A stretch of DNA of 56,125 bases, filler included, from Stramenopiles sp. TOSAG23-6 (Eukaryota), in assembly GCA_900128565.1 (NCBI GenBank). It is 2 parts of 2 records of this genome, joined end to end, with 100 filler letters (N's around TTAATTAATTAA, not from the genome) between each part and the next. Parts side by side here need not be neighbours in the genome. Positions count along the whole stretch, not along the records: positions 1 to 28,350 come from LT635978.1; positions 28,451 to 56,125 come from LT635979.1. One strand, 5' to 3'. The translations under genes were made by a program, and so were the position numbers. The notes under the pieces are model-generated. The model had not been told where the DNA came from. It made no database searches and saw only the letters and a list, made by a program, of their open reading frames with translations. This document shows, piece after piece, positions 1 to 56,125 of this stretch. Every line of letters starts with the position of its first letter. Position 1 is the stretch's first letter.

Positions 1-56
1 TTAGGTACGGAATTTCGTATGAAAAAAACAAAAAAAAATTCATCACGAAATTGTAC
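1..56 (-). other. Partial repeat-family intron (donor GT at 56; truncated by window edge)
   Basis: Minus strand reads GAT|GTAC...TTTTCATACGAAATTCCGTACCTAA, matching the family core. Confidence 0.7.
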
Positions 57-3000
57 ATCATATATTTTCAGAGCCTCATTTAGAATTGTTCTTTTGAGAT
101 CTATATCGCCATTGCAATGATGATCAGTAAGTAAAAGATCAGGATCTATTCTAATATCATTTGATGACCAATTTGGAAACGACATTACCAAAAATAATTT
201 GCGTTTATCTAAAACTTGTTGAGCGATACTTTGAGATGCACGAACAGGTTTATTCCTGAGCTTTTCTTTCCCATTGACGAGTTCGCCTTGTTGCTTCATA
301 TAGCGAGGTCGATATTTGATAAATTCATCAATATCTGAAATTTCTTTCTCTAATCGTTCAATGCTTTTTCGAGTCCCATGTTTTGGTGCATCTAACGCTT
401 CACAGTAAATTTGCACGGCTTGTTGTAAATATTTGGATATTGTAGATTGGTTTTCATTTGCACTACAACGCAAATCACTCAGCGCTTCGGCCAAATTAGA
501 GGCTCTCCCAAAAATACAATCACATTTAACAATATCACATAGATAGTCTACACAGTCACTCACCCAAGTATCATCAAAAGTAATATGTTGCTTTCTCTCT
601 TTTGTACCACTACAAGACTGTATAAACAAACCTTTTATACGGTTAATTATACTATTATCCACACTATTTTGAACTGGAGTTGTTCCATTATAATCCAAAG
701 GAGGGCGAGTGTTTATTATACGTGTTAACTTTTCATTGCCACAAACCCAAAAGAGATCTCCATCATAATCACCACCAGACATTTTATGCGCCTCGGAATA
801 TTCACCACGGACTGAAAAAACTAAACGTCCTACTCTATCTTTTGAACAGATTTCCTTGAGTTCATCGGGTACTACAGCTTTTAACTTACGTATATCGCCA
901 GGCCACATACAAGGATTCCGAGTGATCAAAACATCACCTTCTAAGTAACATCCTTCGCCATCACAAATAAAGACTTCTCCTGGTTGAAGGACTTGTTCTA
1001 TTGTTGGATCAGTGACACCGATAAAGTAGTAACTTTTAGGTATCTTGATTTTTAGACGACTAATTTGATCAATTAATGGAAGAATAATCAATTTCTTCCA
1101 TATGTATCACAAAAAAATATTTCGAAAATTTCAGTTTTTTTGTTAGGTACAACATTTCATACGAAAAAAAAAATAAATTCAAAATTAAAATGATGAAAAC
1201 GTACTGTAATTGTAGAAATGGATCGGAAAGTGATTGACCTGCCTGTATCATATCATTTAAAAGTGTAGGAGAACGACTAGAGATTGGATCAATTGTATCG
1301 CCTACATGATATTGACGAAATGCAAATCTCAGCATTTCTTGACGAAAATTTGGATTATTCAAAGAATTTGAACATAGAGATGAGTTTGATCTTTGTTGTT
1401 CTGACTCATTGTTGTATGATTCTTTACTCGGTATCATCGAACGAATGATTTCCATTTCTTTTTCATACAAGTCTAGTAAAAACGCAACAGCATTCGATCC
1501 TCCCAAAGCACAAAGCTGTAATGCAAATTGCTGGTTAAGTTTTGCTGGAGTTCCTCTATATGTACGAGATGAAGTGATAACTTCCACTTGACCTTTAGTT
1601 TCTGGATTTTGAAAGCGATGAGATGGGCTGCATTTAATCATGGATTTACGAAGTACGATTACTGTATTCTTGATAACATTGTCAGATGCAGAATGTTTAC
1701 GAAGAATTTGACGCAAATACTCGCGAGATACAACTTGAAGGGTTCCCTTTGCCAATCCTTTGTCGGAATGAATTCTCACCTGAAATACCGCAGGCTGTCT
1801 TTCCATATTAATACATGTAGGAGTGGGTGAAGATTCGGAACCTTTGAAAACATTTGTCGGAAATAAAAATGCGAAATCTTCAGCAACAAAACCAGTTCCA
1901 TCTGTCATGTTTACATGATGATGATACACATCATCCATAACATAAACATCGCCATTTTGTAATGATGGGCCGCGGGCTGTCTTTGAAAAACCCAGTTGTA
2001 GTCTTGCATTAAATTTAGCTATAGACAGAGAAGCCACGTCACCAATCCAACCTCGAACATCATCCACTGTTACATTACAAGTATTATATGCAAGGAATTC
2101 TGCAAATAATATCGCTTCTAATCCTGTTTTATTTCGATTTGTAACTTTGCGTACAAATAACAAAGAATATCTTACATTATATAAAGCTCTTTTCATATCT
2201 TTGCAAGTCACGCAAAATAATTCATTATCAATGTCAGAAAGAGACAATTTTAATTGTGATATGAATATATCCTTACATTTAGACTGGCGTGGGATATCTA
2301 TAGCAATATGAAGAAATCTTGATTTGCCAAATTCTCTTTCGAGTACACCCATTCCATTATCGTCTGCACACATGTATTGTGAAAAAATATTTCAAAAAAA
2401 ACGAAAAAAAATAAATTCGAAATTCAAAAAAAAATAAAACATACACTCCAAATGAAACATCAAATAAACCTTTTTTGTGACCTTTCACGAAAACAAACTC
2501 TCCATTTTGTGGTAAATTTTCAAAAACGATTTTCTCATTGGTACATTCAGTGTATTCATATTCATCAGCGTATTCTCCAGATATTTTACTATTTGCACTA
2601 CTATAATCATCATAATTTTCATCAATATCATCGCCATCAGTAGTATTACTTTCAGAACAAAAATCATCATAATTTTCATCACCATCAGTAGTATTACTTT
2701 CAGAACGAAACTCCAAACTTTTCTGATGGTCCTTATACCGTAAACAATTGTCACAATTATTGCAGCGCTCATAAGTATTTCCATTTTCTCCATTGAAATA
2801 CCTCCGAAAAGCAACTTGGCGACACGTAATTTTGTCACAACAATATGCATGACACTTTTCGATTTCAATGCGTCGTCTCTGTTTTACTATTTCAGTGATT
2901 TTGTTTGAAAATCCTGTCGTAATAGATCGCAATAGATTTTGCTGATCTCGATGAAACAGAACAAGGCATTGGGCAGGTTTCCTATCACGACCTGCACGGC

Positions 3001-4244
3001 CAGCTTGTTGATATAAATGTAATAATGACTTTGGCAAAGCAGCATGAAGCACCCAACGCACATTCTGATTATTAACACCCATACCAAATGCTTCAGTTGC
3101 ACACATTATAATTGGCCATTTACCAGGGTTGGAACAACCCTCAGACCACTTTTTATGTAAGTAAGTCTTGTCCCTTGATGTTCTAATACCACCATGATAG
3201 TAAGTTGCAATGCCTTCGCCAAATTTCAAATTAATATGACGACAAAGTGATTCACATTCTTTCTTGGTAATTGTATAAACAATACCTGGCTTTCCATTAT
3301 TCTTTTTTATGAAGTTTATGACACGAGATAATGTATTTGGGTGTGAATGTATTTTCGAAAAATATTTCAAAAAAAAATTGTTAGGTACAAAATTTCGTAC
3401 GAACAAAAATGGAATTTGAAAAAAAATAAAACATACATGGCCTTGGTTCCTACTATTCCATTCACTCAATTCTTCACAAGCAAAAAAAAGATTTTGTCTG
3501 CCACCAATGTTTTCTCTTATCATCGTGTAGGTGTTAAAATCATCACTACCAAATAAATCATTCGCAATAGTTTTCTGAACAAAAATAGTAGCTGTCGCAG
3601 TCAAAGCAAGCAAACTAATCGATGGAAACATTCTAAGCCACTTATGTAAGTCTTTATAGTTTGGTGATAAATCCTCACCCCAAGTTGAAATACAATGTGC
3701 TTCATCTACAACAACCCGTGAAAGCTTGCCTCTATCATACAATTTTTGAAGGATACATTGGCCTAAAAACAATTGAGATTTTTCACAAACAAAAGACTGA
3801 ACAGTAACGTATAAAAGTCGACAAGTTCCGTTTAATACATCTAATTTGGTCTGTTCATATTCCTTTGAAGAAATATCTGAACGTAGGCACCGTGCATTGA
3901 ACAGTTTCTTCAGCTTCTCTGGCATTTTGTTTATTTGTAACATTTGATCATAAATCAATGATAGAGTGGGTACAATAACAACAGTAAGGCCATCATTCTG
4001 TTTGAAAATGGATTCATATTGTATTTCTACGACGTATTGTTGATTTAATTGCTTCTAGCTGTAGCGCCCGAAAACTCTTAAAAGAAAACAAATTAAAGAG
4101 TAAAGTTGACAGTTTTTCATCCAGTGAGATTCTGTCTCCAGTTTTCCTTCCTCTTCCTTTGCTTTTGGCTGCCTTTATTTGGCGAGTCTTTTGTCTCTTG
4201 CGGGCCTCATTTCGAGCAATCTCAAGTTTTGATAGTGCAGTCAT
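57..4244 (-). CDS. RecQ-family helicase fused to eukaryotic RNA-dependent RNA polymerase (RDR/QDE-1 family); multi-exon, C-terminus runs off the window
   Basis: Exons ~4244-3437, 3346-2445, 2371-1205, 1101-57. RecQ motifs: FRALQLEAI, VIVPTLSLIYDQ, VVDEAHCISTWG, FGMGVN, QQAGRAGRD, CR...CNNCDNC Zn site. RdRP motifs: TDGTG, QVR..KG and, in my manual translation of 1101-57, GVTDP, LQPGEVF, TRNPCMWPGD, SGGDYDGDLFWV (DYDGD at 770-756), ALDAPKHG. Frameshift and missing Walker A near 4014-4030. Confidence 0.8.
1102..1204 (-). other. Non-canonical GT-AT intron (103 bp)
   Basis: GTACGTTTT...TCGTATGAAATGTTGTACCTAAC...GATACAT. Removal gives FLQLQ-WKKLIILPLIDQISRLKIKIPKSYYFIGVTDP, in frame with the RdRP catalytic exon; the next AG is out of frame. 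Confidence 0.85.
2372..2444 (-). other. Non-canonical GT-AT intron (73 bp, lacks the TACCTAAC core); joins RecQ and RdRP parts
   Basis: GTATGTTTT...GAAATATTTTTTCACAATACAT. Removal gives FDVSFGV-CADDNG in frame. Confidence 0.7.
3347..3436 (-). other. Non-canonical GT-AT intron (90 bp, in-frame, stop-free)
   Basis: Full family consensus; translated in the ORF track as VCFIFFQ...VRNFVPNN...SKIH inside RecQ. Confidence 0.8.
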
Positions 4245-4662
4245 TACTTAATTGATTGCAATCACTTGAATTGTTGTCTTGTTTCGTTTTTTATAAAAGA
4301 AAAATGTAAAAGTGACCTTTCTTTGACGTTTCTCACTTCAATTAAAAGTGAAAACTACTTTATCAACTTGCTATTTCAATGAAGAAAATAATGAGTCGCT
4401 ACTCTAAATGTGAAATATATAATAATTCAGTTATGAATTGAAAAATGACAAGAATTTCCACCACAGGCAGTCTTCTTGAATAAATAGGATAGCAAATTTT
4501 ACATTTTACATTTTTTGATTTGAGATTTAAAATTTCGATTTTCATCGGAGATTTTTCCTGAAAATAGAAACTGTCAAGAGACTCAGAGTCACGTATATAT
4601 CAAAAGTAGCAGAAGAAACAACTTCACATCATATGTTTTTCTTCTCATGATTACATAAAATA

Positions 4663-6751
4663 ATGTCGCGGAATGTGTTAGATAAATGGAGATTAGGTGG
4701 TCGTCCAACAGGAGTGAAGCCTTACGTCTACTGTTTTCGAACTAAAAGCTTGAACAGTTATAAGCACGGTGAGTATTGTTGGGATAAACATGGTCAGGGA
4801 GTTGTATCAGCAATTGATCAGAGAAACAGTATAGTTGGAGTTTCGAATTATGCTGCCTTAAATTCCGGTCATTTTGAATTACGAAAGAGTGATGATGCTT
4901 CAAAATACCACATTAAGCAACATCTTCAAGATGGTACAGTTGTGCGCTGTGTGGACACTATTAACAATGTTATAATTGTCCAGCGAAATCGAAACAAATC
5001 ACATAAAAATAGATATAACTTAGTAGAGGACGAGCAACAAAATGTAAAAATAGAAAGAAATCGAAACAAATCACATAAAAATAGATATAACTTACTAGAG
5101 GAACAAAATGTAAAGGTAGAAAAAAGTACTGTAGAAATTGCTCCAAAACGAAGAAGGAGAAGGAAGAAGAAAAAGAAACACGATCCTGGAGGTCTAAAAG
5201 CGTTGAAAAAAGAAATGAAACAAATGATGGGAATATCATCTGTAAAACCGAAAAAAGATAATTCTATATTTGAATCTCAAAAGGAAACAACACAGCAACT
5301 ACATCTAAATTCACAAGAAAAAAAGATTATTCGTGTTTTGAACACAGTATCTATATTTGAAGGTATGCTATTAGAAACGTTAGCTGAGATGGCCCGAGAA
5401 ATGGAAGAAATGACATTCCAAGATGGTTACTCTATCATCAAACAAGGTGCAGAAAATGATAATGAATTTTATGTTTTGATAAAAGGTTCCGCTAATGTAT
5501 TAATTAAACGTGTTGCTGTTGCTGCACTGAAAGCACCAACGTTCTTTGGTGAACTGGCGCTCTTAAATGATGCTCCAAGAAATGCCACAATAAAATCTCG
5601 TGGAACAACTACATGCCTAATCCTTCGCCGTGCTGCGTTTAACCGATTTGTTAAAGAAAATACGAAACGTTGTACGTTTTTATCATGAATTTTAATTTTA
5701 TTTTTTTTCATACGCAATTTTGTACCTAACGAATTTCAGTTTTTTTTAATATTGTTTCACAATATATGCATGGAAAATGCAAATATGGAAAGAGAAGAAA
5801 AAGTTTTTCATGCTGCAAATGCTAATCTTATTACAGCCACAGAATATCTTGATGAATACGACACAAATACACGAAATACACGAGACGCTGGGATATTGAA
5901 AGTGAAAGATGCAATTAGTATTTTACGGAATGCTATAAAAATGACCTCTGAAAATAGAGTAAGGGGCAATCCTTTGCAATTATTCCACATATATATGTAT
6001 GTTTTATTTTTTTTCAAATTCGAATTATTTTTCGTACGAAATTTCGTACCTAACGAATTTTTTTTGAAATATTTTTCCAAAATACATACAACTTGGTAGA
6101 GGTCATCTTAATTTAGAAAATGAAGATGAAGCTCAAAGAGCTTTGATGGAAGCCACTCGAATTATGAAAATAAATGATCTTGATCATAAAAATCCTCGAA
6201 ATGAAATTTTATTAAGAGAGGTATTCGGAAATGCTTTAGGGTGGTTTGGTCATATCAGAGCAGCGAATATTCATTTTATAAAGGGAAAACGATTGGCAAA
6301 GGAGATTGGAGATCGACAACAGGAGCTTCAATTTGATATGTTTTACAAAGAAATCCTTTTAAGAAATGGACGATTTGATGAAGCTATGGAACTAACAGTG
6401 CTATTAAGAAAAGAAAAGTTTATTGGAAGAAAACAGAGAACTTTAAAAAAAGAAAAAGAAAAACCACCAGATTATCTACGAAAGAGTACACATAATACAT
6501 ACCATCTTTTCTCGGATGATGCTTTACGATGGATAGTACACAAAAGAGTGTATCCTAACCCTGATTCTACTTCATCTATTGCAAAGATTGGAACCATGAA
6601 TAGATCGGAATTACTAAATTTAATTATTGCATTTGACGATAGCGTAACATTCCATGAAGCAATGACATTAAAATGGCAACACCATATGCGTAGTATGAAT
6701 AGTGATAGTCTCGTAGCTCCACCTTTTTGCAAACGATTTCCCAAGATTTAA
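4663..6751 (+). CDS. Cyclic-nucleotide-binding (cNMP) domain protein with helical/TPR-like C-terminal region; 3 exons (4663-5671, 5768-5996, 6088-6751)
   Basis: IIKQG..FYVLIKG..FFGELALLNDAPRNATI cNMP motif; three ORFs join in frame after removing two family introns. Confidence 0.75.
5672..5767 (+). other. Non-canonical GT-AT intron (96 bp)
   Basis: GTACGTTTT...TGTACCTAAC...CACAATATAT. Removal gives TKR-C-MENAN; the internal CAG at 5737-5739 is out of frame. Confidence 0.8.
5997..6087 (+). other. Family intron, GT-AT (91 bp); an in-frame AG alternative exists at 6099
   Basis: Near-perfect consensus copy; removal gives FHIY-I-QLGRGH. Confidence 0.75.
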
Positions 6752-6887
6752 TCATCGGGATTATACTGATTCAATAGGTTGGTACACTCTATGATAATCA
6801 TATCTAGTAAAACCTAACCCTAAGGTAGCTAATAGGTAAACTAAAGTTTATTATAAGAAAAAAACAAATGGATCTTCTTTTAATATT

Positions 6888-7757
6888 TTAACTTTTTTTT
6901 TTCTTTCTTTTTTTCGCTGCTAGTCGCTTTTCCAATTTTTTTCTTTGAGCAGCCTGAGCACTGTCATATTCGGTTGCCCTAAGATTAGTCTCTCGTGCAT
7001 GTTCTTCATGGATTTTCTTCTGAAACTGGAGTGTCTCTGATGCCGAAGGAGCACCCTGCATATCTTCTTCAATATCGTTTAATCTCTCTTGTAATCTTTC
7101 CGAGCGTTTGCGTTGTTCTTGCATTTCCTGGCGAAGCTGGTTGTTTTGGTTTTGTGCATCCTGAAATGCACGGCGTTCGGCCTCGAACTTTGCGCGTTCC
7201 TCGTCTAGCGCAGCTTTTTCTGAAGATACTGTCGCTGTTTTTGCAGATTCCGCCATAACCATTCGAAGTCTATTATAAAGAGGTACAAACTCTTCAAATG
7301 ATAGTACGCCATCTCTGTTATAATCTGCTGCCATGAATTGCTGGTTTGTAAAAACTTTAGGAAACTGCAGATCCTTTAGTAGTAGTGAAAGTTCTGCGCG
7401 GTCAATCAGCATGTCACCAGAAGTGTCATATGTAGCAAATATCTCTCTTATTTGATCTTCTCTCTCATGCAAAGAGTGCATCTGGTCATGCTCAATGTTT
7501 CCATTTGTACCAATTGCATTGGCATTATTTGCTCTCATGCGAGCACCACAAGAAGGACACCCAAATTCTACTACGCCGGGAGGTACTCCAAGTATTGTTT
7601 TGCAGCTGATACATGTACAAAGCGACTGCTGCAATTGGTGTGAGGGTTTGTTTTCTGGCGGTAAGGCCATTACAGTACCACATTTAGGGCAGCCAAATCT
7701 ATTGTGGCCAGGAGGCACCATAATTCTCGTACCGCATGTTGGGCATCCAACCTGCAT
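6888..7757 (-). CDS. Zinc-ribbon (CxxC x2, LSD1-like) + EF-hand pair + coiled-coil protein
   Basis: CPTC..CPKC, CISC..CPSC; DTSGDMLIDRAE and DYNRDGVLSFEE EF-hand loops; charged helical tail. Confidence 0.8.
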   Translation of the reverse strand: MQVGCPTCGTRIMVPPGHNRFGCPKCGTVMALPPENKPSHQLQQSLCTCISCKTILGVPPGVVEFGCPSCGARMRANNANAIGTNGNIEHDQMHSLHEREDQIREIFATYDTSGDMLIDRAELSLLLKDLQFPKVFTNQQFMAADYNRDGVLSFEEFVPLYNRLRMVMAESAKTATVSSEKAALDEERAKFEAERRAFQDAQNQNNQLRQEMQEQRKRSERLQERLNDIEEDMQGAPSASETLQFQKKIHEEHARETNLRATEYDSAQAAQRKKLEKRLAAKKRKKKKS

Positions 7758-14815: not shown

Positions 14816-15244
14816 CATCGATCTTGATCTGAATTTTTATTTTCTACCCAGTGGGTATTTAGTATTAATACCTGTGGGGTACTGTTCGGCAAGCGTTTCA
14901 TATATCTCTATCTAAAACAAAACAGTACAATATCAAAATATCAAAATATCAATATAAATATTCTAAAACAAAAAATTACAATAATTTGCTCGGAATAAAA
15001 ATCCATAAATGTTAATTTATTATACAATCACAAGACTATAGTTCAAACAAAGTCCTAATCTACATCTTATTTATAATATCATTATGATATTATCGAAAAT
15101 AATAAATAAAAAAAACATTCTTTTTATCAGTAAATATTTTTTCTTAGAATGAGAGAATCCAAATAAAAATAACTAGAATCAAAGAAATTTTTAAAACAAG
15201 ACTCCAATCCTAAAAAAATATACAAACATCACTCTCATTATCAG

Positions 15245-16603: not shown

Positions 16604-17046
16604 GATATGTTTTTCCAATCAAAAGTAATACCTTTATGTTTGTACTAATTAGTTACACGAGAACTTCGCATCGATCATGAAAGAGTCAGCGTCGACGTCA
16701 GCTGACCAAATTTAACACGAAATCTCATAAATTCCTACTATCAAAATATCAATCTAAAAATTCTAAAACAAAAAAAATTACAATAATTTGCTCGGAATAA
16801 AAATCCATAAATGTTAATTTATTATACAATCACAAGACTATAGTTCAAACAAAGTCCTAATCTACATCTTATTTATAATATCATTATGATATTATCGAAA
16901 ATAATAAATAAAAAAAACATTCTTTTTATCAGTAAATATTTTTTCTTAGAATGAGAGAATCCAAATAAAAATAACTAGAATCAAAGAAATTTTTAAAACA
17001 AGACTCCAATCCTAAAAAAATATACAAACATCACTCTCATTATCAG

Positions 17047-19147: not shown

Positions 19148-22100
19148 TTAATGTTGGCTTGACTTTGAAATTTCTCGGAGTCTTCGTCTTGCTCCCGACG
19201 GTAGGCGCAAAGCTCCACCTCTACTTTCAACAGGAAGCATTGTTAAAGCAAGAACTGCTGGCGGACCCGCTGATGCAACTAAACGGCGCCAGTTTCCATA
19301 GGGCATCTCACGTTGCAGCGGTGGAGCATCTTTACCACGCGCTACTTCAATCTCATCTAGAAGACTAGAGAGAAGTTTTGGAGGGATTCCAAAGTGAGCA
19401 GCATCAAAGTGAATAATTTTGGTTTTAGTATCATCCCGGATACCATTTTTATTACTTTCAGTCGAATCACTCAAAACATTTGATGCCTCAGCCACCAAAG
19501 CAGCAGCGGCAATATTTACAGGTAAGACCCCAACACTGCGCTTTTTAGAGGTCAACCCAGCGGGGCTTGCACCTGTTACCTCTACAGCAGATAGCAAGAG
19601 TGAGAGCCAATCACGACGCTCTGAACGCGGTGTATAGTGAGAAATATTTTCATTGCATTCAAAAGAAGAATTCATATTTTGTTTGGATGAAACTGGAGGA
19701 CCAATCAGCCCAAGACGGACAATAACAAGTTGTATTTTCCCACGAGCTGTATTTTGGAAAAATATTTGAAAAAAAACGTTAGGTACAAAATTTCGTACGA
19801 AAAAAATATCGAATTTGAAAAAAAATAAAACATACATGCTGCAGCAGCAAAGAGATGTTCAGCAACCATTTTACTACGGGCGTATCCACTACCTAAAGAC
19901 ATTGCACATGATGATGGAACCAATGAGTCAACTGGGTCTCTCCAGTCTGCTACTTTCGCTGCCGCGGCAACTGGAATCACACTCATAGTAGATACAAATA
20001 CAACAAGTGGTTTTGTATACTTGCTAATGTAATTGTTGTTCTTATTTACATTGATTGCTCGCGAGGAACTTGGAGATATGAGGTCAACTAGAGCTGCAAC
20101 AGAGGCAACATTAGTTGCACGAAGTGAATTATAGGGTCGAGCATGATCAACTGATGCACCGCTATGTAAAACAGCGCCAAAGTGCATTGCCTGAATGGTT
20201 GAGAAGTCAGATGTTGAAAGACCAAGTTGAGGTTTTGACAAATCATATTCAAACACAAGCAAACGACCAGACGTTTTTGCTTCATTCGTTGCACAGCTTT
20301 TACAAATACGATCAAGTGGGCTACGCGTCAAAACTACTATGGTTTTCCATGAATTATTCAAAATTGCATCAAGAAGATGAGGACCAAGGAATCCAGTGGC
20401 TCCAGTGAGAAGTATACAGGGTGATTTTACTTCATTATTGCTTACACATACTTTTTCTACTGGAACCTTTTGAAGAGCTTGCCAAGCAACATCGAAAGAA
20501 ACCTCCTCTTTCCAAAATATGGTAGATTCCGTCTTGGTAGATTCCGTCTTGGGTATGCACTGCGCATCGATGTTATCAAAGTTTGACTGCTCAATTGCTT
20601 GCACAGTATCATTCTTGAAAGAATGGATGTAAAACTGCGCCTTTCTTCGAAGATCCCAGGGTAAGAGGGCATATATATCCCTCACGGAAATCCTTTCAAT
20701 AGACATTGAGGTTGAATTTCTTATATATTGTTGATCCCAAGCAGCTACAAGTAAAGTTGCAGCAATACTGTCACCACCTAATAATGTCCACCATTCTCCA
20801 GGATCTAATTCCTTGGAATTTACCAAGGCTTCAGGTAATAACTTTATTGCCTCTTTATCAGTTTCTGCTACTAAAAACGCTAATATTCTTTCGACTACAT
20901 CATTACTACCATGATCTATATTGTTACTAATGCTTGAGTTCACTGTTGACGTTGTCGTTGTAGTAATGATACCTGGGTGTCGACTTGCAATAACATTTCG
21001 CCTGAGCTTTCCATGAGAAGAACAACAGCCACTTGTCTCATCCCACGGACCACTGTCAATCGAAACACGATCAGGACACTCCCAACTTCTTAGTCCAGCT
21101 TCAGATGCTGCTAATCTCATTTCTCTAATAATTTTACGAGCTACATCAGCTGTTGTTTTTACCGGGACCTCGTTTTGTTTTACTGTAGAAATGCTCGTAT
21201 TTGCAACAATGACAATAGCAATTGGTTTCACATCACCAGGTCTTGCAATTAGCACACAACTTTCGATAGAGGGACAGTGCTCTTCATATACCCATTCCAC
21301 AGTCTGCGGTGAAAAAAATTCACCATTATCTAGTTTGACGGTAAAGCTAACACGTTCACAAACTTCTAGAAGTTTTCGTTCTGGTTCATTCTCATTTCCA
21401 GGGCGAACAATCCAACGACCAAGGTCTCCAGTATGGAACCATCCAGCAGCATCCAATACCACTGCATCGGTGCCTCCATTTTGTAAAGGTTTCTTCACTA
21501 GAATCTCACCTAAATCATCCCGGTATTTGTGTTTTAACAACTTGATATGTACACCTTTCAGTGGAACACCATCGCGTGTAATGCCACCAATTTCAGTCAT
21601 GGCATATCCATTCGAAACAACAGCGTTACCACCGCCTTTACCACCTTTTCCAAAACATTTTCGAAGAAAATCTAATAATGGTGGAGGAACAACTGCACCA
21701 CCAATAGCCACTAGTCGAAGACGAGATCCACCAAGACGCCGAATTATTCCAAAAGCAGTTGTTGTAGCTTTTTCAACAGTTTTACTTTCTTTACATAAAT
21801 TATGTAACTCGATTTCATACCGACGTTGATATAGAGAATAGAAGCGCGGTGCTGCTGAGAGTGTGGTTGGTGCAATAGCAAAGATCTGATCAAGAATATC
21901 TATTTCTCTACACTTATTATCGCTTTTTCTATCACTAGTACCTCTCGGATTTGTTTCACTATTATTAGATATATTACTATTACTATAACACACACCGCGA
22001 GTATTACAAAGGCCAAGACGCCCGCCATGTAGCAACTCACCCCATGACGTTCTACGAGCTAACGCATGAGACAATGGTGCAAATAGTGCAGCACAAGATA

Positions 22101-26342: not shown

Positions 26343-28292
26343 ATGACGGACTACATGGCAGAACTGATTACAGAGACAGGGTTGGCTGTGCCTGCACCGA
26401 ATACTATGCGAGGGCATCGTACTCCTATTTCTGTAAACGCTAAAGATGGGGACACGTTTGCATACGGCGCAAAAAAGATGACAGTCATCCGTAGTTTACG
26501 TACGCCGTCTACTTCTTTGGTTGACACGAATCATCAAGAAACAGTCCGTGTTGCTCGATTTGATAAAAGTGGTTCTTGGGTAGCAAGTGCAGACGTAACA
26601 GGAGTACTCCGCGTGTGGGCTTGGAAACGGGAGGATCATTTATTGAAAAAGGAAAGTCGACCAATTGCAGGAGAGGTTACAGATTTGGCTTGGGATTCCG
26701 ACTCAAAGCGCATCGCTGTAGTTGGAAAAGCCCGGGGATGCAAAGGCAAAGTTGTTGGATGGGACACAGGATCGGCGATGGGTGAGCTTACGCAACACAC
26801 TAAAAATATCAATTGTTGTTCTTTCCGTCAATCTCGTCCGTTTCGTGTGTGTACTGGAGGAGAAGATAGAAATGTCATTTTGCATCAAGGACCTCCGTTC
26901 AAAGTGCTTTTGCGTAATAAGGCCGGACATAAAAATTATGTAAATGCTATGGCATACAGTCCTGATGATTCTGTATTTGCTACGGGATCATCAGATACTC
27001 GTATTCGCATATGGGACGGGAAAACTGGAGAAAAACTAAAGCAAATGGCCTGTACGTTTTTCAACCAAATGTCTACTTTTTTTTGTTACGAAATTTCATA
27101 CCTAACATTTTTTTTTTCCCTTTTCAAATGAATGACTAGAATGTATCGTTCAATTTGAAGTTTATTTTTATACCACATTCTCTGTATCTAAACATATTTT
27201 CGAATTGTGCATATTTCTTTACTGTACACGGAAAGGTGAAAATCCTGGACACGTAGGTTCCGTGATGGATTTGTGCTGGTCAGAGGATGGAAAAACAGTA
27301 ATTTCCTGTGGTAGTGACAAAAAACTTTGCTGGTATGATCTTGAAACACGAGCGTGTTTGAATGAGTGTATTGTCCGTGATAAAGTTACCGTGACTTCGT
27401 TTCCAGATCTAAAACCGCAAGTCCATCATCAGCTGGTTAGTGTTTCTCGGTGCGTTTTCATTTCAATTTCGAATTTGGTTTTTTTTTCGTACGAAATTTT
27501 GTACCTAACGATTTTTTTTGAAATATTTTTTCATAATCCATGTGCGGCGATAAATTATTAGTAGGCTCTCTTGCTGGAGATATCAATGTCATTGAAGCTA
27601 CAGATGGCACATTTGTCGACACTATATATAGTCATACATCTATGGTATCTAAAAATAGTCTTGTACTCGCATCCGATGGGAAAACAGTTTATTCAGGAGA
27701 TCTTGGTGGTATGATTTTCTGTTGGGATGTTACTGCTGATTACCTTCAGCTTTCACGATTACCTGGTTATGCTGTGCCTGACGATAACCGAATGGCACAT
27801 GATGGTTGTGTGCAAGGTATCGCAGCTCTTACTAACAATTGTCTTTTGTCTGTTGGTAATGATGACACGTGTCGTGTTTGGATGAATGGAGTCTCAGCAG
27901 GTGTTGGGGATAAACTTGGAGGCCAACCACGTTCTATGGTGTCTGTTGGTCCTTCTGATAAGGCTACTATGGCCATTATTGTGACTTCGAAAAATAAAGT
28001 TCTTACGGTCAATGGGTCAGGGAAAATTATTTCATCATTCGATTTACCTTATTCTGCTAGTAATGCTCTTGCTGTGTCTGTAACTGGAACTGAAATTGCT
28101 ATTGGTTCATCTCAAAGAGGTAGAGGTGTAATGCATAGATATGAACTTGTTGATGGCGTAATTGGCAATGAGCTTCAAAAAGTCTGTGGTAATGCAGAAT
28201 ATTATGAGAATGCTGAAGACGCAGAGTATTCTCCGGATGGCACGATGTTGGCTGTTGGCTGGGGAAAAGGAGAAGTTTCGCTATATGAAAGT
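26343..28292 (+). CDS. WDR1: WD40-repeat actin-interacting protein 1 (AIP1/WDR1)-like; exons 26343-27051, 27230-27449, 27542-28292; truncated at contig end
   Basis: PAPNTMRG, VASADVTG.LRVW, WDSDSKRIAVVG, WDTGSAMGEL..H, RPFR..TGGED, GPPFK hallmark motifs. Confidence 0.8.
27052..27229 (+). other. Family intron, GT-AC (178 bp; possibly two abutting units split at 27142/27143)
   Basis: GTACGTTTT...ATACCTAAC...GAAT|GTATCG...TGTACAC; removal gives KQMA-W-KGENPGH. Confidence 0.65.
27450..27541 (+). other. Non-canonical GT-AT intron (92 bp)
   Basis: GTGCGTTTT...TCGTACGAAATTTTGTACCTAAC...ATAATCCAT; removal gives QLVSVSR-CGDKLLVGSLAG; downstream AGs are out of frame. Confidence 0.8.
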
Positions 28293-28350
28293 GTATGTTT
28301 TATTTTTTTTCAAATTCGAATTTTTTTTTCGTACGAAATTTTGTACCTAA
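28293..28350 (+). other. Partial family intron at contig end
   Basis: GTATGTTTT...TCGTACGAAATTTTGTACCTAA followed by Ns. Confidence 0.8.
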
Positions 28351-28450
28351 NNNNNNNNNNNNNNNNNNNNNNNNNNNNNNNNNNNNNNNNNNNNTTAATT
28401 AATTAANNNNNNNNNNNNNNNNNNNNNNNNNNNNNNNNNNNNNNNNNNNN
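28351..28450. other. Artificial contig linker / assembly gap
   Basis: 44 N + TTAATTAATTAA (stops in six frames) + 44 N. Confidence 0.9.
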
Positions 28451-28513
28451 TTTTTTTTCGTACGAAATTTTGTACCTAACAAATTTTTTTTGAAATATTT
28501 TTCCAAAATATAT
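28451..28513 (+). other. Partial family intron at contig start (3' end TAT)
   Basis: TCGTACGAAATTTTGTACCTAAC...CCAAAATATAT followed by an open frame continuous with the ankyrin ORF. Confidence 0.75.
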
Positions 28514-35277: not shown

Positions 35278-35347
35278 ATATTTTCATGTGAAAAGTTATG
35301 TACAATAAGAAAGGACAGTAATGTGTTAAAATGTTGATCATTTTTTT

Positions 35348-37302
35348 TTATAAAAAATTAGATTGAGTAACCTTCATAGCCATATTTTTTTCCATCCGAG
35401 CTTTTTTTTTCCCTTTTAAACCTGCTACTTTATCTTCATATGTACCACCGCAGTGTCGTTTGCACAATTTCGTATACTTCTTTGTACGATTATCAGTAAA
35501 ATCTGCATCAACGGTAAAACAATCTTCTTCGGGAGAATGACTCGCATTTTCTATTGATTGTAGCAGCGTTCTGGCCATTGCCGCTTTCACAGAATATCGA
35601 CACCATTGCTTTTCAACAACTTTCCTAATTGATGACAATGCACGTGTACTAATTGTGTGATCAAAATCAAGGTTATCAAAACTACAATCATACAAAAGAA
35701 GAGGCCAGTCTGGTGCCATGTCGTATCCAGGTTTACAAGGGCATTTTGAAATATCTAAAAGTTGTTTAATTATGTATTTTAGAAAAATATTTAAAAAAAA
35801 AAAAAATTGTTAGGTACAAAATTTCGTACGAAAAAAAAATAAATTCGAAATTGAAAAAAAAATAAAACATACATAGAAGGGTTTTCTTGACCACGACCGA
35901 CTAGAAATAGTACCGCAACCATACAACGTACTTGATGCCATAAAAATCCACGTCCACAAATTTCAAATACGAAAACTTCATCAGTATTGTTTTCTTGTAT
36001 TGTTTCATCATTACTTTTCATTTCTTCTTCTTCTAAAATTTTTACTCCGTTTTGGGTTGCTTTAAATATTTTACAGGTGAGAATTTCTCTAACAAAATTG
36101 TGGACATTTACCACATCCATTTTACAAAAGTTACGAAAGTCATGCTGACCAACGAAATACGATGCTGCTTCTTGCATTTGATGAAGATTGAGGGATCTCT
36201 TTGGGAAGAAATATCTATAAGTTCTACTACGACAACTAAATCGTGCATCAAATGGTTGCAATGTTTGAGATTCATTTTTTTCATTTAATTCTTTCAAACG
36301 AAATGTATGTTTTTGTCTTGGAGCTTCGGACCAACCTAAAACTCTAATTTCTAAAGGTAATACATTATTTAGTAGCATTGCGTAGTCATGTTCTTTTTTG
36401 TGCATGTTGAGTTTACTTTCTAATGAACTTGAAGGTATTAAACGAACACTGAGCGTTCTACTTTTGAACTGTTTCTCAAAAACACAAGATTCTGATGCAC
36501 CAACATCTCTCCAAGTTGAGTTTTTCTCGTCCAATATTTGAATGATTGTATCAATCGGTGCAATTCCCATATAGTGATCGATTTTAGTTTCCAAATCTGC
36601 AACAGTTGCATTTTTTGGAAGATGTAGACAGGTTTTTCGGAAACCTCCGAACATTTCAGTTTCCACTTTGACTACAACGTTATCACTATCATCAATAAGA
36701 TCAATTTGTTTAGACTTATACTCCATATATTTAATACCTTCGGCAGCAGACTTTGATGCGGCTTCTGTGAGAACACGGGGAACAAATGCAACACCACGTT
36801 TGAGTTTTGACCGAAGGTTCAAAGCAATAACTTGACCTGATGCACTAACACCTTTATCGGTGCGACCACAACGGGAATACACAGATGATAAACGGTTTTC
36901 AATAAGGCAAGTTTTTTGTAAAGCATCAAATAGTTTTGATTCTACAGTATTATCCGTATCAGATTGAGATGCGAGACCTAAATAATCTTCTCCATTATAC
37001 CAAACTTTAAGAGCAATATGCCGCTGTCTATATTGTGAGAAATCAAATGGTCGACGGATCTTTTTCTTCTTTTTACATTTCACTTTTGCTGTTTTGTTAT
37101 TTACACTAATGGAAGAATGTACAGTTGCTGTAATGACTTTTTTAGTTATTGTAGACAGCCGAAGTTTTTTAAGAGGAGGCTCTTCTAGTTGCACATGAGA
37201 ACCTACGATACGACCGTTAATTTCGATTCTAGGACTTCCACTACGGTATTGCTGTACCAAATCAATCAGTTCCTCTTTTGAAAGGTTATCCAACCCATCC
37301 AT
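35348..37302 (-). CDS. PUS3: tRNA pseudouridine(38/39) synthase, TruA family; exons 37302-35873 and 35771-35348
   Basis: RHIALK, YSRCGRTDKGVSA, FDARFSC..RTYRY, HDFRNFCKMD, FLWHQVRCM, then KPGYDMA..PLLLYDC. Confidence 0.9.
35772..35872 (-). other. Non-canonical GT-AT intron (101 bp)
   Basis: Removal gives GQENPS-I-IKQLLDISKCPCKPGYDMA, the expected PUS3 segment; the next AG is out of frame. Confidence 0.9.
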
Positions 37303-47925: not shown

Positions 47926-49063
47926 ATGATCAAGACGAAATTAGAAACAAAAACAATGGGACCTACCCAAAATGCAATCCAAGAAAAGTATGGCTATAGA
48001 CAATGGTTGTCTAAAAACTATGATTTTGCTAAAAAGCTTGAGGACGGAGCGCGTATGCTAACGTTGTTATGCTCTTCACAACTTGATGAGAGGTCTGGTC
48101 TCCTAGCTGAAGGTGTGTACGCAGTTATAAATACAATAGGAACTTTAAACGACCATATTATATCTCGAGGTGAAACAACAATTGGTAGCAAATCTGCATG
48201 GGCATTGACCCTGATAAGTAATCTTGCTGTAGTTGCTGAAATGCTCTCTGCTAGAAAAGGAAATAAGTCAAAGTGGCGTACAATTACTTATGTCGAGTTG
48301 TTGAAGGCTGCTCTTAGAATTATGATTCTTATACGTAGTGGCTGGGCTACCCAAATAAATGATTCTTTGTACATGCCAATTGACGACGATGTTCAAAGAA
48401 CAAAAGATCAACAATTGTGGTGGAGAGGTCGTCGTAGTGGCTCTTTGATACCACTTCCTTCTGGACTCTCTGCTCACAAATTCAAACAATTGAAGAACAA
48501 AGGAACACTTGTTCGTTCTCCAAATACTCCACGAGGTGTATATTCCAGTATTGGTGAATTACTGTATATAATACGACCTGTAGTTTTCTCATTGATGCGA
48601 TCTAAACAAAATACAAATACAAAGAAAAATATGTTCTGGGCTCCTTTTCTCCTATCCCTTGCTATTGACTTTGCGAGCTATCGTTGTTCAAATGCAGCTG
48701 TGAAATCAGCAGAAAAACGTGATGAAGCAACTACTGTAGGAGGCGGATCAGTACCATCTTTTATTAGTATGGAATTTTCTAGACGAAAACTTTTGTGGTT
48801 ACTTTACGCACTTAGAGAACCTTTCTTCAGTTCTGTCACAAAAAGAGCAACAGACAAAGTTAGCTCTTTGTCAAGTATGTTTTATTTTTTTCAATTTCAA
48901 AATTATTTTTTTTTCGTACGAAATTTCGTACCTAACAAATTCAACAAAAAAAAATATTTTTCACAATATATATTACGTTCCACTTTTTGGTATGTTAGTT
49001 CGTTATATGCTTGATATGTTGTACTATATCCAGCGACATCACTTTTATATCTCTGGCTCATAA
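47926..49063 (+). CDS. PEX16: Peroxisomal membrane biogenesis protein PEX16; exons 47926-48874 and 48972-49063
   Basis: ELLKAALR, GELLYIIRPVV, RRKLLWLLYALREPFF; spliced C-terminus NYVPLFG...QRHHFYISGS*. Confidence 0.85.
48875..48971 (+). other. Non-canonical GT-AT intron (97 bp)
   Basis: Family consensus; removal restores the PEX16 C-terminus; no AG within ~25 nt downstream. Confidence 0.9.
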
Positions 49064-50194: not shown

Positions 50195-52156
50195 ATGAAT
50201 ATATCGTTTTTCTCGGACGTTTCCACCACAAGTTACCAAAATCTTTCGGCAGCTTGTGTATTTGACGGCTGCAATCAGTCATCAATAGTATTCGGGAATG
50301 ATCAAGAAAATTCCTTTGATAGTAATTTTAACGCTTCCGCAGAGTTTGGTCGGGGAGAAAAAGAAGAAGAAGTGATTGATGACTCCATTTATCAAGGGAA
50401 GCCCCCCATAGAAATCAAAAGTCCACGTAGTCCACAACTAAATGGTACAAATTTGTTTTTGCCAAGGTCCAAATTGACTGAAAGTATCTTGGAAAGCAAG
50501 TCGCCTGTACATTTGCATCATTCATTTCAAATTTATAGTTCAAGTTTTATTTATTTTATATCCAATGTGTCTAATGAATTTCAAATTTGAAATATTCTTT
50601 TACAATATATGTTCCTATATCTCGAAATGATCAAGATGATATTAGAAATGATGTCAGTGTCCCCGCTACTGCCTGTTCTGACTTCTCTACCCCGAGTAGT
50701 TTTGACGGTTCTAGTGCACCAGGTGGAGGCGTTGATGTGACTTCTCGTAAACATACTGGTGATCAAGATGATATTAGAAATGATGTCAGTGTCCCTGCTA
50801 CTGCCTGTTCCTCCCTCTCTACCCCGAGTAGTTTGATCGGTTCAAGTGCAGCAGGTGGAGGCATTGATGTGACTTCTTGTAAACATACTGGTGGATACAT
50901 TCATGATGACCATACAAACAAAATAACACCCAACAAAAATGTACATTTACGTCATTCATTTCAAATTTATAGTTCAAGTTTTATTTATTTTATATCCAAT
51001 GTGTCTAATGAATTTCAAATTTGAAATATTCTTTTACAATATATGTTCCTATACCTCGAAATGACCAACAAGATGATATCAGAAATGATCTCAGTGTCCC
51101 TGCTACTGCCTGTTCCTCCCTCTCTACCCCGAGCGGTTCAAGTGCAGCAGGTGGAGGCATTGATGTGACTTCTTGTAAACATACTGGTGGATACATTCAT
51201 GATGACCATACAAACAAAATAACACCCAACAAAAATGTACATTTACGTCATTCATTTCAAATTTATAGTTCAAGTTTTATTTATTTTATATCCAATGTGT
51301 CTAATGAATTTCAAATTTCAAATATTCTTTTACAATATATGTTCCTATATCTCGAAATGACCAACAAGATGATATCAGAAATGATGTCAGTGTCCCTGCT
51401 ACTGCCTGTTCTGACTTCTCTACCCTGAGTAGTTTGGTCGGTTCTAGTGCAGCAGGTGGAGGCATTGATGTGATTTCTCGTAAACATACCTGTGGAACTC
51501 GTGGAACTGGTGGTTACATTGCTTGCCCTAAATGGACCACTTCAAAAAAAAGTGCCATATTGGCAAGAGATATTTTGTGTTGTCAAAAAAAACAACAACC
51601 CGATCAAGGTGGTCTTGTCATGCACCGTCATTGCAAAATACAACACTCGAATCTTGGTGGACGAAATTGTTGTTTGAATGCCTTCGACTTTGCAACTGGA
51701 AAATTTCGTACAGTCACAAGGAAGCAGATGCAACTGGAAGGTGCAGGCGACATCAGCATTATTGACATAGCCAAATACGTTAATGAATGTGGAAAGAAGG
51801 TACCCTTTAGATTGCGTACAAGGCCTGGGATGACCTGGGGTTGCCTAATTTCAAAAAAAGAAGGAATATTTGTTGGTCGTAGCTATGTTTATTCTGATAA
51901 ATCTCATCATTACATCGTTTATGATGCCTGGCGCTCGATCATATATATTGGATGTGGTTTTGCAGATGTGATGATCCAGGAAAGTGATCGTGAGGATCCA
52001 AAAGCCTTTGAGAAAAGATTTTCTGATGAATATGGCCTTGGTCTCCAAGTGGAACATTTGTACTGTTTGTATGTCATTGCAAAGCATGCATTCAAAACAA
52101 CATACAACACTCCAGATGACTACAAGCCTAAGTCGAAGAAGCGTAAGCTAATGTAA
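50195..52156 (+). CDS. Internally triplicated protein with C-terminal Cys/His domain (possibly papain-like); exons 50195-50506, 50611-50940, 51045-51236, 51341-52156
   Basis: Four ORFs join in frame via three phase-0 GT-AT introns; DDIRNDVSVPATACS repeats; NCCLNAF...HYIVYDAWR. Confidence 0.65.
50507..50610 (+). other. GT-AT intron (104 bp), divergent family member, copy 1
   Basis: GTACATTT...GTCTAAT...GAAATATTCTTTTACAATATAT; in-frame join. Confidence 0.75.
50941..51044 (+). other. GT-AT intron (104 bp), copy 2
   Basis: Near-identical to copy 1; in-frame join. Confidence 0.75.
51237..51340 (+). other. GT-AT intron (104 bp), copy 3
   Basis: Near-identical to copy 1; in-frame join to ORF 51434-52156. 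Confidence 0.75.
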
Positions 52157-52209
52157 AAAATGTGTCTTTATATGGTATAGTGAGTTTTTCCTAGTATTTT
52201 TGTTTTTAT

Positions 52210-52993: not shown

Positions 52994-55900
52994 ATGAGTG
53001 GACGTGATCGTTTGATTGATTACTTTGTTTGTTCTTCTTGTGATGATTATGAATCGCAGCTGCAAAGTATGCTTGCCGAAACTTCAGAAGTTTATGGATC
53101 GGATCTTCCGATAACAGATCTTGCGGTCATCTTTCCAACGTGTGGTGATTCAGTTCCCGATGGTTTCGAGGTCATTGATAGAAGCTATGGTGGTCAAAGT
53201 GCAGACTTAAATGGCGGGCGATTTATGTCTAAGATTTGCTATATCTGCGTCGAACGAAAGTCTAACAATCGTCAACCTATTATTGACATAAAACTAATCA
53301 AAGTCAATGAAAGTGACATTGTAGAATACAGAAAATATGTACCTGGAGTTACACCAGAATCCCCTACGAATAAAACAACTTTATCAGCTGGAGGTCGTAC
53401 AATATTAAAACTAGCTCTCTCTGGGTATATTATTATTAAGGAAACACCGTCTGGTTTGCCTGCAAATTTAAATATGGGTCGGTTTGGTCCAGACATTTTC
53501 ATGGCATTTAGAAGACAAGCAGATGTTCCTACTGTTGAAGAATTATACAGATCATTGGCCCCCATTGTCGAAGTTGCCGTCTTACAGCCTGGTAATACCA
53601 CACCACCTCCAGGTTTTTTTATGGATCCTACAAATGTCAATGAAGTGAAATTATCAAGGACACCAGCACGGCATATCTGTTTCCGACGTGCCGAAGCCAA
53701 TTCTTTAATAGATTATACATTTGAAGCAAAAATTTCAGATCGATTTCCAGAGAGTAATTATTCTGACTTTGATTTGCCTTCAATTATTCATCATTTTTGT
53801 TTCCCTCAGGGAGTTAAACTAAAAAGATGTAAAAATGATGCGATGCCAATACCTACTTGGCATATCTTTGTACTTACCGGTGGTGCTGGACAAAGAGTAT
53901 TCGGAGCTTGCCTAACGTTTTATGAGAAACTTTCAAAGGAGACAACGTCTGCAATTCAAAATCTACAATGGAAAAATCGAATTTCATTGATAAGTAATGA
54001 AGGATTGAAATTAGAACCGATAAAATCTAGTGTATCGAATGGACCTACAGGTGAAATGTCTAATATGTGCACATATACACCAAAGTGTATTGCTGTACTC
54101 TCACATTTTGCATTTTTTAAACCCCTTAAACAGTTTCTCACACAATTATATAGTGTTTCGTTAGGTACTTCTCTTGTTCCAATTGAACGGATAATTGGTC
54201 AATTTCTACTCAATGTGCCAAGACCTGTCTCTGGAGAGCAATCAGTGATGATGTGGCCTGCTAAAGATAAAACATTTTCAGAATTAACATTCAATCCTGA
54301 TAATCTAAACAATCCGGAAATTGAGGGATCTCAAAAAGTCATTAGTGGAGCTTTCGATACAGTTGTAATGACTGCGGATGAACGTGGTGACAATGGACAG
54401 TTTGTAACATCTAAAAAAGTTCCCGCAGGATCTGTAAAATTTACACCGTCAGATGTCAAATTCTCAGCTCCAAGGGCTGATTACCTCCCTTTGTTAGATT
54501 TATCATTTGTTCCTTTATTTCAACATTTAGGGTGTGATCTTGTAATTGCGGTAATCTATACACTTCTATTAGAAGAACGTGTACTTTTTTATCATTCATT
54601 TAAATTTTGTGTTTTGGTAGAAAATTCTGTACCTAACAATTTTGTTTTGAAATGTTTTTCACAATACATGTACTTTTGGTTTCCCGACAACTTGCACTAC
54701 TTGGTCAAGTGGGTGAGCTTTTGCGTGCATTACTTTTACCCTTCCAATGGCAAGGTGTTTACATACCAGTTTGTCCTAATTACATGTCCGGATTTTTAAA
54801 TGCTCCGATGCCTTTCATATTAGGTATATCACCTGATGAATTACCAAATGATTTGGTACCAAAAGAAGGCCAACTCGCTGTCCCTGATGATGTTTTGTGT
54901 GTTAACCTTGATAGTAATTCAGTGTCCATGGGTTGGCGAGGCAATCAAAAAGGTGATACAGTTAGTGATTTAATCCGTGGGTCTGAATGGCGTGCATGTT
55001 CTAATGCAGCAAATGAGTTAGCTAAAGTAGTAAAATCTAGTGGAATTGATCCAAAAGGTCCTTCGTATTCTTGTATGTTTTCATTAGAAATTTCGAATAT
55101 AGTATTCAAATGTATTGTTCAAATATATTGTTTAAATATATTGTTTACATATATTTATGTTTGTATCAAATGTTGTTTCCAATAATTATTGAATTTGACA
55201 TAATTTTTCACATTACATCTACTTCAAATGACAACATCAAAAATAAAACAACAAACAATTTAGATTTTGGCTTTGCATTCAAGACTGAAATGTGTGTAGA
55301 TTACAATTTGCCACCACTACGCATCCGTGCAATTGTCTTGACAATGATGTGTGAAATTCTTGGAGGTTATGTATGTTTCATCGCCAACATTTTTGTAAGA
55401 AAATTCTGTACCTAATGATTTTTTTACTAACAAAATATATACATATATATATTTTTCACAATTCATAGACGTTTTCTTAAAATTGGATTTCCAAAAAATA
55501 ATACTCAAATAAAATCTGATGCTAGTGTTTCATCAAGTAGCTGTGAGACTAATCATGTATGTTTTATTTTTTTTTTACAAAAAATTCGATTTTTTTTTTC
55601 GTACGAAATTTTGTACCTAACAAAAAACAATTTGAAATATTTTTCCAAAATACATTTCGTATACGTTTATTTGAAAATAATAGAATTTACACCAAAAATA
55701 ACAAAAATACAAATTCTGATTGTTTATGTAAATATTTGAGTATTGACCGAGAAGGACCTCTTTATGTTTTCACAATATATCTAACTCGTTCATCGTATGA
55801 TATGATTCCAAAAGAAATGCAAATAATTATAGAAAAAAGTAATAGATGTACGTAGTCTTGTTATATTTCGTGTTTTTTTTTTTTTTTTGTAAAAAAAAAT

Positions 55901-56066
55901 TTGTAAAAAAAAGTCATACCTAACGATTTTTTTAAACAAAAACAAAATCTTTTTTCACAATACATCTCATAAACAAAATGGAAACAAAATTAAGGGATTA
56001 ATTCGTGTAATTCCTGTAATCTTTCAACAAGGCATTAACGAGAAAGCATTACTTCAAGACTGGGTT
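52994..56066 (+). CDS. MABP + uDENN/DENN/dDENN Rab-GEF (DENND4-like); multi-exon, runs off window
   Basis: LIDYFV, PITDLAVI, ADLNGG, DRFP, FCFPQG, FVLTG, FGACLTFYE, PKCIAVLSH, LLEERVLLVS, LLPFQWQGVYIPV, APMPFILG, GGYRRFL after removing family introns. Confidence 0.85.
54581..54669 (+). other. Non-canonical GT-AT intron (89 bp)
   Basis: Removal gives LLEER-VLLVSRQLALL (DENN core). Confidence 0.85.
55073..55218 (+). other. Non-canonical GT-AT intron (146 bp, diverged interior)
   Basis: GTATGTTTT...TTTTCACATTACAT; in-frame join PSYS-S-TSNDN. Confidence 0.7.
55371..55466 (+). other. Non-canonical GT-AT intron (96 bp)
   Basis: Removal gives LGGY-RRFLKI; using the adjacent AG (55467-55468) gives a stop within four codons. 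Confidence 0.85.
55557..55655 (+). other. Non-canonical GT-AT intron (99 bp)
   Basis: Full consensus, ends CCAAAATACAT. Confidence 0.75.
55659..55780 (+). other. Putative GT-AT intron (122 bp) following a 3-nt micro-exon
   Basis: GTATACG...TTTTCACAATATAT; needed to regain the frame LTRSSYDM. Confidence 0.55.
55848..55965 (+). other. Non-canonical GT-AT intron (118 bp)
   Basis: GTACGT...ATACCTAAC...TTTCACAATACAT; in-frame join SNR-S-HKQNG. Confidence 0.75.
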
Positions 56067-56125
56067 GTACGTTTTATTTTTTTTTCAATTTTGAATTTAT
56101 TTTCGTACGAAATTTTGTACCTAAC
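56067..56125 (+). other. Partial family intron at window end
   Basis: GTACGTTTT...TTTCGTACGAAATTTTGTACCTAAC. Confidence 0.8.

Follow-up and report, generated by a model that had tools for sequence, protein, structure and literature searches.

How are genes read when the introns that interrupt them end in AT? The question is raised by a window of 56 kb (56,125 nt, two joined records of the assembly of Stramenopiles sp. TOSAG23-6), whose genes are broken up by short look-alike introns of about 90 nt. An AG at the end of the intron is among the most constant of eukaryotic signals, and nearly all eukaryotes have G as the last intron base. We analyzed the whole window and, outside it, two metagenome copies. 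Homology and reading-frame evidence make it very probable that the boundary in this family is GT...AT. We put at roughly 60% the probability that the copies are an introner-like family, that is, short, non-autonomous nested palindromes of ~90–100 nt that each form a whole intron and are spliced GU...AU. Removal by the spliceosome and mobility are the parts of this reading that we infer.

Combining motif searches, an nhmmer profile made from nine clear copies and run over the window, and reading of the open reading frames (ORFs), we found 20 copies or fragments of one intron family (Table 1). Fifteen are complete, four are cut, and one is a hybrid. The profile gave 15 matches with E < 0.001 and three weaker matches that we judged to be true members. 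The initial annotation had proposed about 23 copies of one repeat family; the family is real and the count is 20. Its other descriptions held. Three shared internal motifs occurred 4, 13, and 8 times at up to three mismatches, versus 0.00 expected in shuffles. All 20 copies or fragments were in the sense orientation, inside coding sequence and on the same strand as the long ORFs around them, and phases 0, 1, and 2 each held five of the 15 complete copies. Copies in intergenic or antisense DNA, on which the annotation would have given up its introner reading, were absent from the window in the profile search; the reverse-strand matches were only self-matches of the palindromic core. Finally, both window ends and both gap edges indeed break within a copy, three of the four exactly at GTACCTAA(C). 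Contig breaks inside a repeat point to a high copy number.

Introners are recognized as many similar copies, each a whole intron, at unrelated sites in unrelated genes. Here, there were 20 in 56 kb, with identities of up to 91% over the full length, and the hosts were unrelated: genes for RdRP, RecQ-like, cNMP-binding, AMP-binding/NAD_binding_4 (reductase-like), WDR1, PUS3, PEX16, and DENN proteins. No non-family interruption between same-strand ORFs was seen in the window, by ORF inspection, which is not proof.

The 3′ end had been overlooked in the initial annotation. Positions +1/+2 were GT in 21/21 donors, with GTAYGT in most. At the acceptor, position −2 was A in 17/17 and position −1 was T in 16/17, so that the last two bases are AT in 16 of 17 acceptors and not the AG of canonical U2-type introns. 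The exception, the CAG end of the copy at 19835, belongs to a copy that is 91% identical to one ending in CAT. Removing the sequence from GT to YAT rejoined long same-strand ORFs in 15/15 complete copies (14 AT, one AG), where chance would restore the frame in about one third; a GT...AT excision was also in frame in one of the metagenome copies. In nine of the 15 complete copies, AG does not occur internally. An AG end occurs in two of the 20 copies or fragments, the 19835 copy and the hybrid intron at 27052–27235. AG would thus still be usable in these two, and GT...AT is the sole single rule that fits the rest.

We scored candidate junctions against homologues, and the PUS3 gene gave one exact junction. 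A total of 2773 open donor-by-acceptor pairs were scored with a hidden Markov model (HMM) of 77 homologues. The best pair removed 35872..35772 (101 nt, GT..AT) and scored 243.6 bits; the best GT..AG pair reached 198.6 bits, 45 bits lower. The resulting protein aligned with 11 homologues without a gap across the junction, which falls within a conserved block, and the intron itself contains no AG anywhere. Downstream AG acceptors were tried and rejected: the nearest ones are out of frame or remove 30 conserved residues. The public protein model P0002 is the PUS3 locus itself (100% identity in blocks, and the best database match of the PUS3 exon). It forces a GT-AG intron, with a donor GT that lies four bases into the actual intron and an acceptor AG 17 nt beyond the true end, and ends in a frameshifted tail of ~57 residues.

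The other hosts were tested in the same manner where homologues permitted. In the DENN gene, the nominal 89-nt excision aligned gap-free with P0170, the sole homologue found, and the best GT..AG pair was 8.5 bits lower; an 8-nt boundary repeat gives nine equivalent placements, none of them AT..AC or GT..AG. In the RdRP gene, the best excised length was 103 nt, the nominal value. Comparison of the RecQ-like protein with PDB showed only ~30 extra residues between its domains, as phmmer had aligned intron-coded residues by chance. The 29-residue tail of PEX16 had no Pfam match.

Other ways of reading the interruptions were rejected. An AT..AC rule cannot be general, as it requires an exon with AT at its end and thus suits only some of the family copies. 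Read-through translation fails because most copies shift the frame. U12-type introns begin with RTATCCTT, have a branch 10–15 nt from the 3′ end, and in some cases end in AC or AT. The family shares with them a tolerated non-AG 3′ end, and their branch motif TCCTTAAC resembles ACCTAAC. However, the 5′ end here is GTAYGT(TTT) and not RTATCCTT, and the branch-like motif, at about 34–40 nt, is too far from the 3′ end. Where the 3′ motif is clear, ACCTAAC starts 38–47 nt before that end; in the eroded copy at 55371 the distance is 57 nt.

We wondered how the 3′ end could be specified. Every family copy that has the ACCTAA core contains 3–12 AT dinucleotides downstream of it. Simple scanning from the branch would therefore fail, and the 15-nt motif at the 3′ end must specify the site. 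Three complete copies (2444–2372, 55073–55218, and 55659–55780) have no ACCTAA, and all three carry the CACAAT form of the 3′ motif; in copies without ACCTAAC, the UUCACAAU part of this motif may hold the branch.

Are the copies related by descent, or do they merely share splice signals? A young copy opens at its 5′ end with GTATGT and a T-run, continues with CAAATTCGA, the palindrome TTTCGTACGAAA, and GTACCTAAC, and closes with another T-run and TTGAAATATTTTTCCAAAATACAT. Pairwise identity was 89–91% among the copies at 3436, 5997, and 19835, with a second tier at 74–82% and eroded copies at 31–50%, which bears out the range from near-identical to eroded given previously. The likeness spans the entire ~90 nt, T-run lengths included, and thus indicates one family by descent. 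Linked variants mark subfamilies: the 5′ block is CAAATTCGA or CAATTTCGAATTTA and the 3′ block is CCAAAATACAT or CACAATAYAT. Eroded copies retain GTAYGT(TTT), often ACCTAAC, and TTTTTCMMAATAYAT. The eroded introns at 55073–55218, 55659–55780, and 55848–55965 kept the 5′ GTAYGT and the 3′ block TTTTTCACAATAYAT, with ACCTAAC in some, and the 3′ motif was the best-kept block among the eroded copies. The 2444–2372 copy has lost the whole core and still lies between two long in-frame ORFs.

These patterns bear on a decidedly unlikely alternative, that the copies are old, non-mobile introns of an intron-poor genome, kept alike by long strict signals and perhaps by gene conversion; GT...AT would still be valid. 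Intron-poor genomes have strict signals, such as GTATGT/TACTAAC in yeast or the fused branch and 3′ motif in Giardia and Trichomonas. The family resembles them in its strong 5′ consensus, branch consensus, and long conserved 3′ motif, and differs in that their introns end in AG and show no full-length likeness to one another. That the signals are common to all introns seen, that eroded copies retain exactly the two ends and often ACCTAAC, and that older copies lack a boundary repeat and none is intergenic or antisense would all suit old introns, but 89–91% identity over the whole 90 nt, spacer and T-run lengths included, and linked variants that define subfamilies speak against them. Moreover, the 73-nt copy without its core, between two long in-frame ORFs, indicates that the core is not required; the palindrome, found only in the two most similar of the folded copies and lost in older ones, fits decay after insertion; and the assembly breaks at the repeat. 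The suggestion in the initial annotation of extended cis-signals under selection can be kept in part, since the eroded copies retain exactly three blocks.

In the 5997 copy, four pairs of inverted arms are nested roughly concentrically: a terminal pair of 10 nt (90%), the inner pairs TTTCAAA/TTTGAAA and AAATTCG/CGAATTT, and a central pair GTACGAAA/TTTCGTAC. We folded six copies and compared the end-to-end hairpin with shuffles; it was better in the 5997 copy (z −3.1) and the 3436 copy (z −2.3). A hairpin joining the ends could in principle guide removal by a structure-specific RNA endonuclease and ligase, or elimination at the DNA level. The pairing ends of young copies and a 3′ end without AG are in keeping with such a non-spliceosomal route, which we nevertheless consider very improbable: donors are GT in 21/21 and mostly GTAYGT, whether the copy is young or eroded; a branch-like ACCTAAC is present (TACTAAC in the 55371 copy); older copies without a hairpin still interrupt intact genes; two of the 20 use AG; and the element is present in the assembly DNA and in two metagenome contigs.

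The exon sides of the junctions were then compared with the intron ends. The last exon base was T in 17/21 donors, and the exon ended in AT in 11/21. In six of the 15 complete copies, the exon's last 2–3 nt equal the intron's last 2–3 nt, an exon-side AT of this kind being found in most young copies, and in the two metagenome copies CAT lies upstream. In two older copies the reverse is seen: the next exon opens with a repeat of the intron's first 5 nt (27450) or 8 nt (54581), and the donors depart from GTAYGT exactly as the next-exon repeat dictates (GTGCGT and GTACTT). These next-exon repeats may be a target duplication, break-repair microhomology, or chance. Copies are also clustered: a single gene in the final 1.6 kb of the window holds seven of the 20 copies or fragments, young and eroded ones mixed, and two of them are only 3 nt apart.

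Such placement bears on the route of spread. Reverse splicing has been proposed for the spread of fungal introner-like elements: an excised intron would reverse-splice into another transcript, be copied into DNA and recombine into the genome, with the exon-side AT as a favored insertion context instead of a duplication. This would account for strictly sense copies, 20/20 of them in transcribed coding sequence and none intergenic, and the exon T at −1 in 17/21 matches the intron −1 base, as a proto-splice site predicts. But it gives no role to the nested palindrome and terminal inverted ends, the 5- and 8-nt next-exon repeats resemble a DNA-level event, and seven of 20 copies within 1.6 kb of one gene suits local hopping. 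An RNA route seems unlikely to us.

The introner-like reading that we prefer would work as follows. Each copy would bring its own splice signals: a yeast-like GUAYGU, a branch-like UACCUAAC, U-runs, and the 15-nt UUUUUCMMAAUAYAU. The major spliceosome would cut the message at GU...AU, the 3′ site being read through the long 15-nt motif and not by plain scanning from the branch. Copies would have spread over a long time, and after insertion the interior would decay while three signal blocks remain under selection. The AT or CAT repeated on the exon side would be a 2–3-bp target-site duplication or an insertion-site preference. Two drivers of spread are conceivable: a DNA transposase, which would use the inverted ends and leave a 2–3-bp duplication, or reverse splicing, which would account for the sense-only, transcript-only placement. 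For the introner reading of the initial annotation, the descent of the family, its subfamilies, the age series, the palindromes, and the assembly breaks within the repeat speak in favor; the mobility that it assumed, and a recent or ongoing mass gain, stay conjectural.

Several observations weigh against the proposal. A plain DNA transposon should leave some intergenic or antisense copies. The boundary AT repeat is absent from most older copies, where there is no clear target-site duplication. Of the six copies that we folded, four were no better than shuffles (z −0.1 to −0.4), among them the rather young copy at 35872. A degenerate 21-nt core matched just two loci in JGI metagenomes. Some junctions also leave latitude. 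In PUS3, three left shifts, including an AT..AC one, yield the identical message and tie in score, and GT..AT is favored over them because it is the only rule that fits all copies. The RdRP junction was placed only to ~7 nt, and GTTTTC..GGAAG, a GT..AG pair with a poor donor, was just 2 bits lower. For the WDR1 copy at 27450, the nominal pair ranked 56th of 1533 (50.1 versus 54.8 bits for the best), and the HMM favors a loop deletion.

We searched for the family elsewhere. The exact 26-nt core had no match in JGI metagenomes, and the degenerate 21-nt core had no match in viral contigs. Of the two metagenome loci, L001 supplies a donor only, its sequence past the core being broken or chimeric. 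L002 carries, at 440–800 (−), a family copy GT...CACAATACAT that is in frame with the gene around it. A donor-like site of the GTAAGT type lies ~75 nt downstream of this copy, so relatives may mix intron types. Rfam and tRNA scans of the window gave no match. Nine listed sequencing runs contained part of window positions 100–7000, three of them metatranscriptomes with shares of 0.05–0.14; we take them as a sign of neither expression nor habitat.

The family behaves like the introners described in the relevant passages of PMC9860276 and PMC12130899. Those of Micromonas and Aureococcus, as presented in the discussion of PMC7789003 and in Gozashti et al. 2022 (PMC9860276), are likewise look-alike whole introns in unrelated genes, short and non-coding, with inverted ends, seen here in young copies, and their own splice signals; theirs have canonical GT-AG ends and direct and inverted repeats of constant length, whereas the present family has an AT 3′ end and a boundary repeat of 2–3 nt that is not universal, and its mobility is deduced only. 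The closest layout is that of the Amoebophrya introner elements (Farhat et al. 2021, PMC7789003), with inverted ends, short direct repeats, and non-canonical borders. According to the intron passages of that paper, inverted repeats of 8–20 nt join the ends, direct repeats of 3–5 nt span the exon/intron borders, the introns are non-GT-AG, and standard gene predictors fail on them; the host is a marine protist. The same passages describe no fixed terminal dinucleotides and report U1 components as undetected in Amoebophrya, in contrast to the fixed GT...AT, textbook 5′ site, and branch-like motif found here.

That the spliceosome can be retuned for non-GT/AG introns is indicated by the available account of the tunicate Fritillaria borealis, in which most introns escape GT/AG and a change in 3′-site recognition was required (bioRxiv 10.1101/2025.08.15.670264). 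It differs, in that account, in being an animal with varied intron ends and duplicated U2AF subunits. What is new relative to these systems is one fixed GT...AT rule combined with textbook 5′ and branch signals. We tentatively suggest, at something short of an even chance, that in this lineage AU has replaced AG as the 3′ splice rule of almost every intron, the site being set by the 15-nt motif, which would be spread by a self-copying palindrome with which the spliceosome co-evolved. Part of the splicing code would, in this sense, have been rewritten by a mobile element.

Our literature search, supplements and their possible splice-site statistics aside, turned up neither GT-AT introns nor introners from MAST (marine stramenopile) groups. 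The intron passages of the single-cell assembly paper (PMC5778133) are silent on non-canonical introns, the word "intron" is absent from the MAST-3 genome paper (PMC12614181), and the passages of PMC9860276 and PMC12130899 on introners yielded neither GT-AT introns nor MAST introners.

If the boundary is as we propose, this organism would offer a clean test, provided by nature, of the reading of the last intron base by U2AF, by second-step factors, and by pairing of the first and last bases. A transposon-looking intron family with its own non-standard signal also bears on the origin of introns and on spliceosome tolerance. The GT-AG rule underlies the gene models of these ocean grazers, an abundant group that is uncultured; the sole model that we checked, P0002, is frameshifted, and many proteins of the assembly are probably wrong in the same way. 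Introner surveys that start from annotated introns would miss a GT...AT family.

Table 1. Family introns and fragments in the window, in order of position.
Coordinates	Strand	Feature	Length (nt)	Ends	Phase	Host and remarks
1..56	−	Cut copy		Donor GTACAA at 56		Broken by window start at GTACCTAA
1102..1204	−	Complete copy	103	GTACGT...ATACAT	2	Within RdRP domain
2372..2444	−	Internally deleted copy	73	GT...CAT	2	Without TACGAAATTTTGTACCTAAC core; joins RecQ-like ORF to RdRP ORF
3347..3436	−	Young complete copy	90	GT...CAT	0	RecQ-like helicase, between DEAD and Helicase_C domains
5672..5767	+	Older complete copy	96	GTACGT...ATATAT	1	Directly after cNMP-binding domain
5997..6087	+	Young complete copy	91	GT...CAT	2	Nested palindrome, four concentric arm pairs
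19747..19835	−	Young complete copy	89	CAG end, sole in family	1	Within NAD_binding_4; 91% identical to 5997–6087
27052..27235	+	Hybrid/eroded intron	~184	Family 5′ half GTACGT...ATACCTAAC; 3′ end most likely in-frame AG at 27235		WDR1
27450..27541	+	Complete copy	92	GTGCGT...TCCAT	2	WDR1; first 5 nt = next exon's first 5 nt
28293..28351	+	5′ part of young copy				Cut by scaffold gap
28450..28513	+	3′ part of copy		Ends ATATAT		Follows gap; phase unfit for donor before gap
35772..35872	−	Complete copy	101	GT...CAT	2	Within conserved PUS3 core; best-proven junction
48875..48971	+	Complete copy	97	GT...ATATAT	1	Near PEX16 C-terminus
54581..54669	+	Older copy	89	GTACTT...ATACAT	0	Within DENN domain; first 8 nt = next exon's first 8 nt
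55073..55218	+	Eroded intron	146		1	Retains GTATGTTTT and TTTTTCACATTACAT; without ACCTAAC
55371..55466	+	Eroded copy	96	Ends TTCAT	0	Core mutated to ACCTAAT; TACTAAC downstream
55557..55655	+	Young copy	99	GT...CAT	0	3 nt upstream of next intron
55659..55780	+	Eroded intron	122	GTATAC...CACAATATAT		
55848..55965	+	Eroded copy	118	GTACGT...ATACCTAAC...CACAATACAT	1	
56067..56125	+	Cut copy				Window end directly after GTACCTAAC

Two entries of Table 1 leave some latitude. For the hybrid intron, ~181–187 nt must be removed, and the copies at 55557–55655 and 55659–55780 can be read as one 224-nt intron or as two introns around a 3-nt exon, both in frame. The scaffold gap is preceded by a phase-0 donor, but the exon after it requires phase 1; the two gap edges are thus two different introns. 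The sequence missing between them probably comprises the rest of WDR1 and the beginning of a gene with ankyrin repeats. The gap itself (28352–28449) contains a TTAATTAATTAA linker between runs of N, with stops in all six frames, an assembly device.

Several other features of the window were recorded. On the minus strand, the RecQ-like ORF (2372–4054) and the RdRP ORFs (1–2371) are joined in frame via the 2444–2372 copy, so that 1–4054 looks like one fused helicase-RdRP gene. A RecQ helicase and an RdRP cooperate in fungal RNA silencing. Two adjacent genes at 14953–18654 (−) encode 24-residue plant-type leucine-rich repeats (72-nt period), and neither has a family intron; the 98–99% identity of their flanks over 300 nt suggests that they were duplicated locally and recently. 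A tandem array at 23414–23730, with six listed copies of a 44–46-nt unit rich in CACACA/TATATA, adjoins an acidic-repeat ORF. Tandem repeats of 132 and 296 nt (90–97% identity) run across a chain of overlapping, only potentially coding ORFs in shifting frames at 50506–51492 (+). Finally, at 42531–42749 (+), a cation-efflux (zinc-transporter-like) gene begins with a histidine-rich run that is encoded by a 24-nt repeat.

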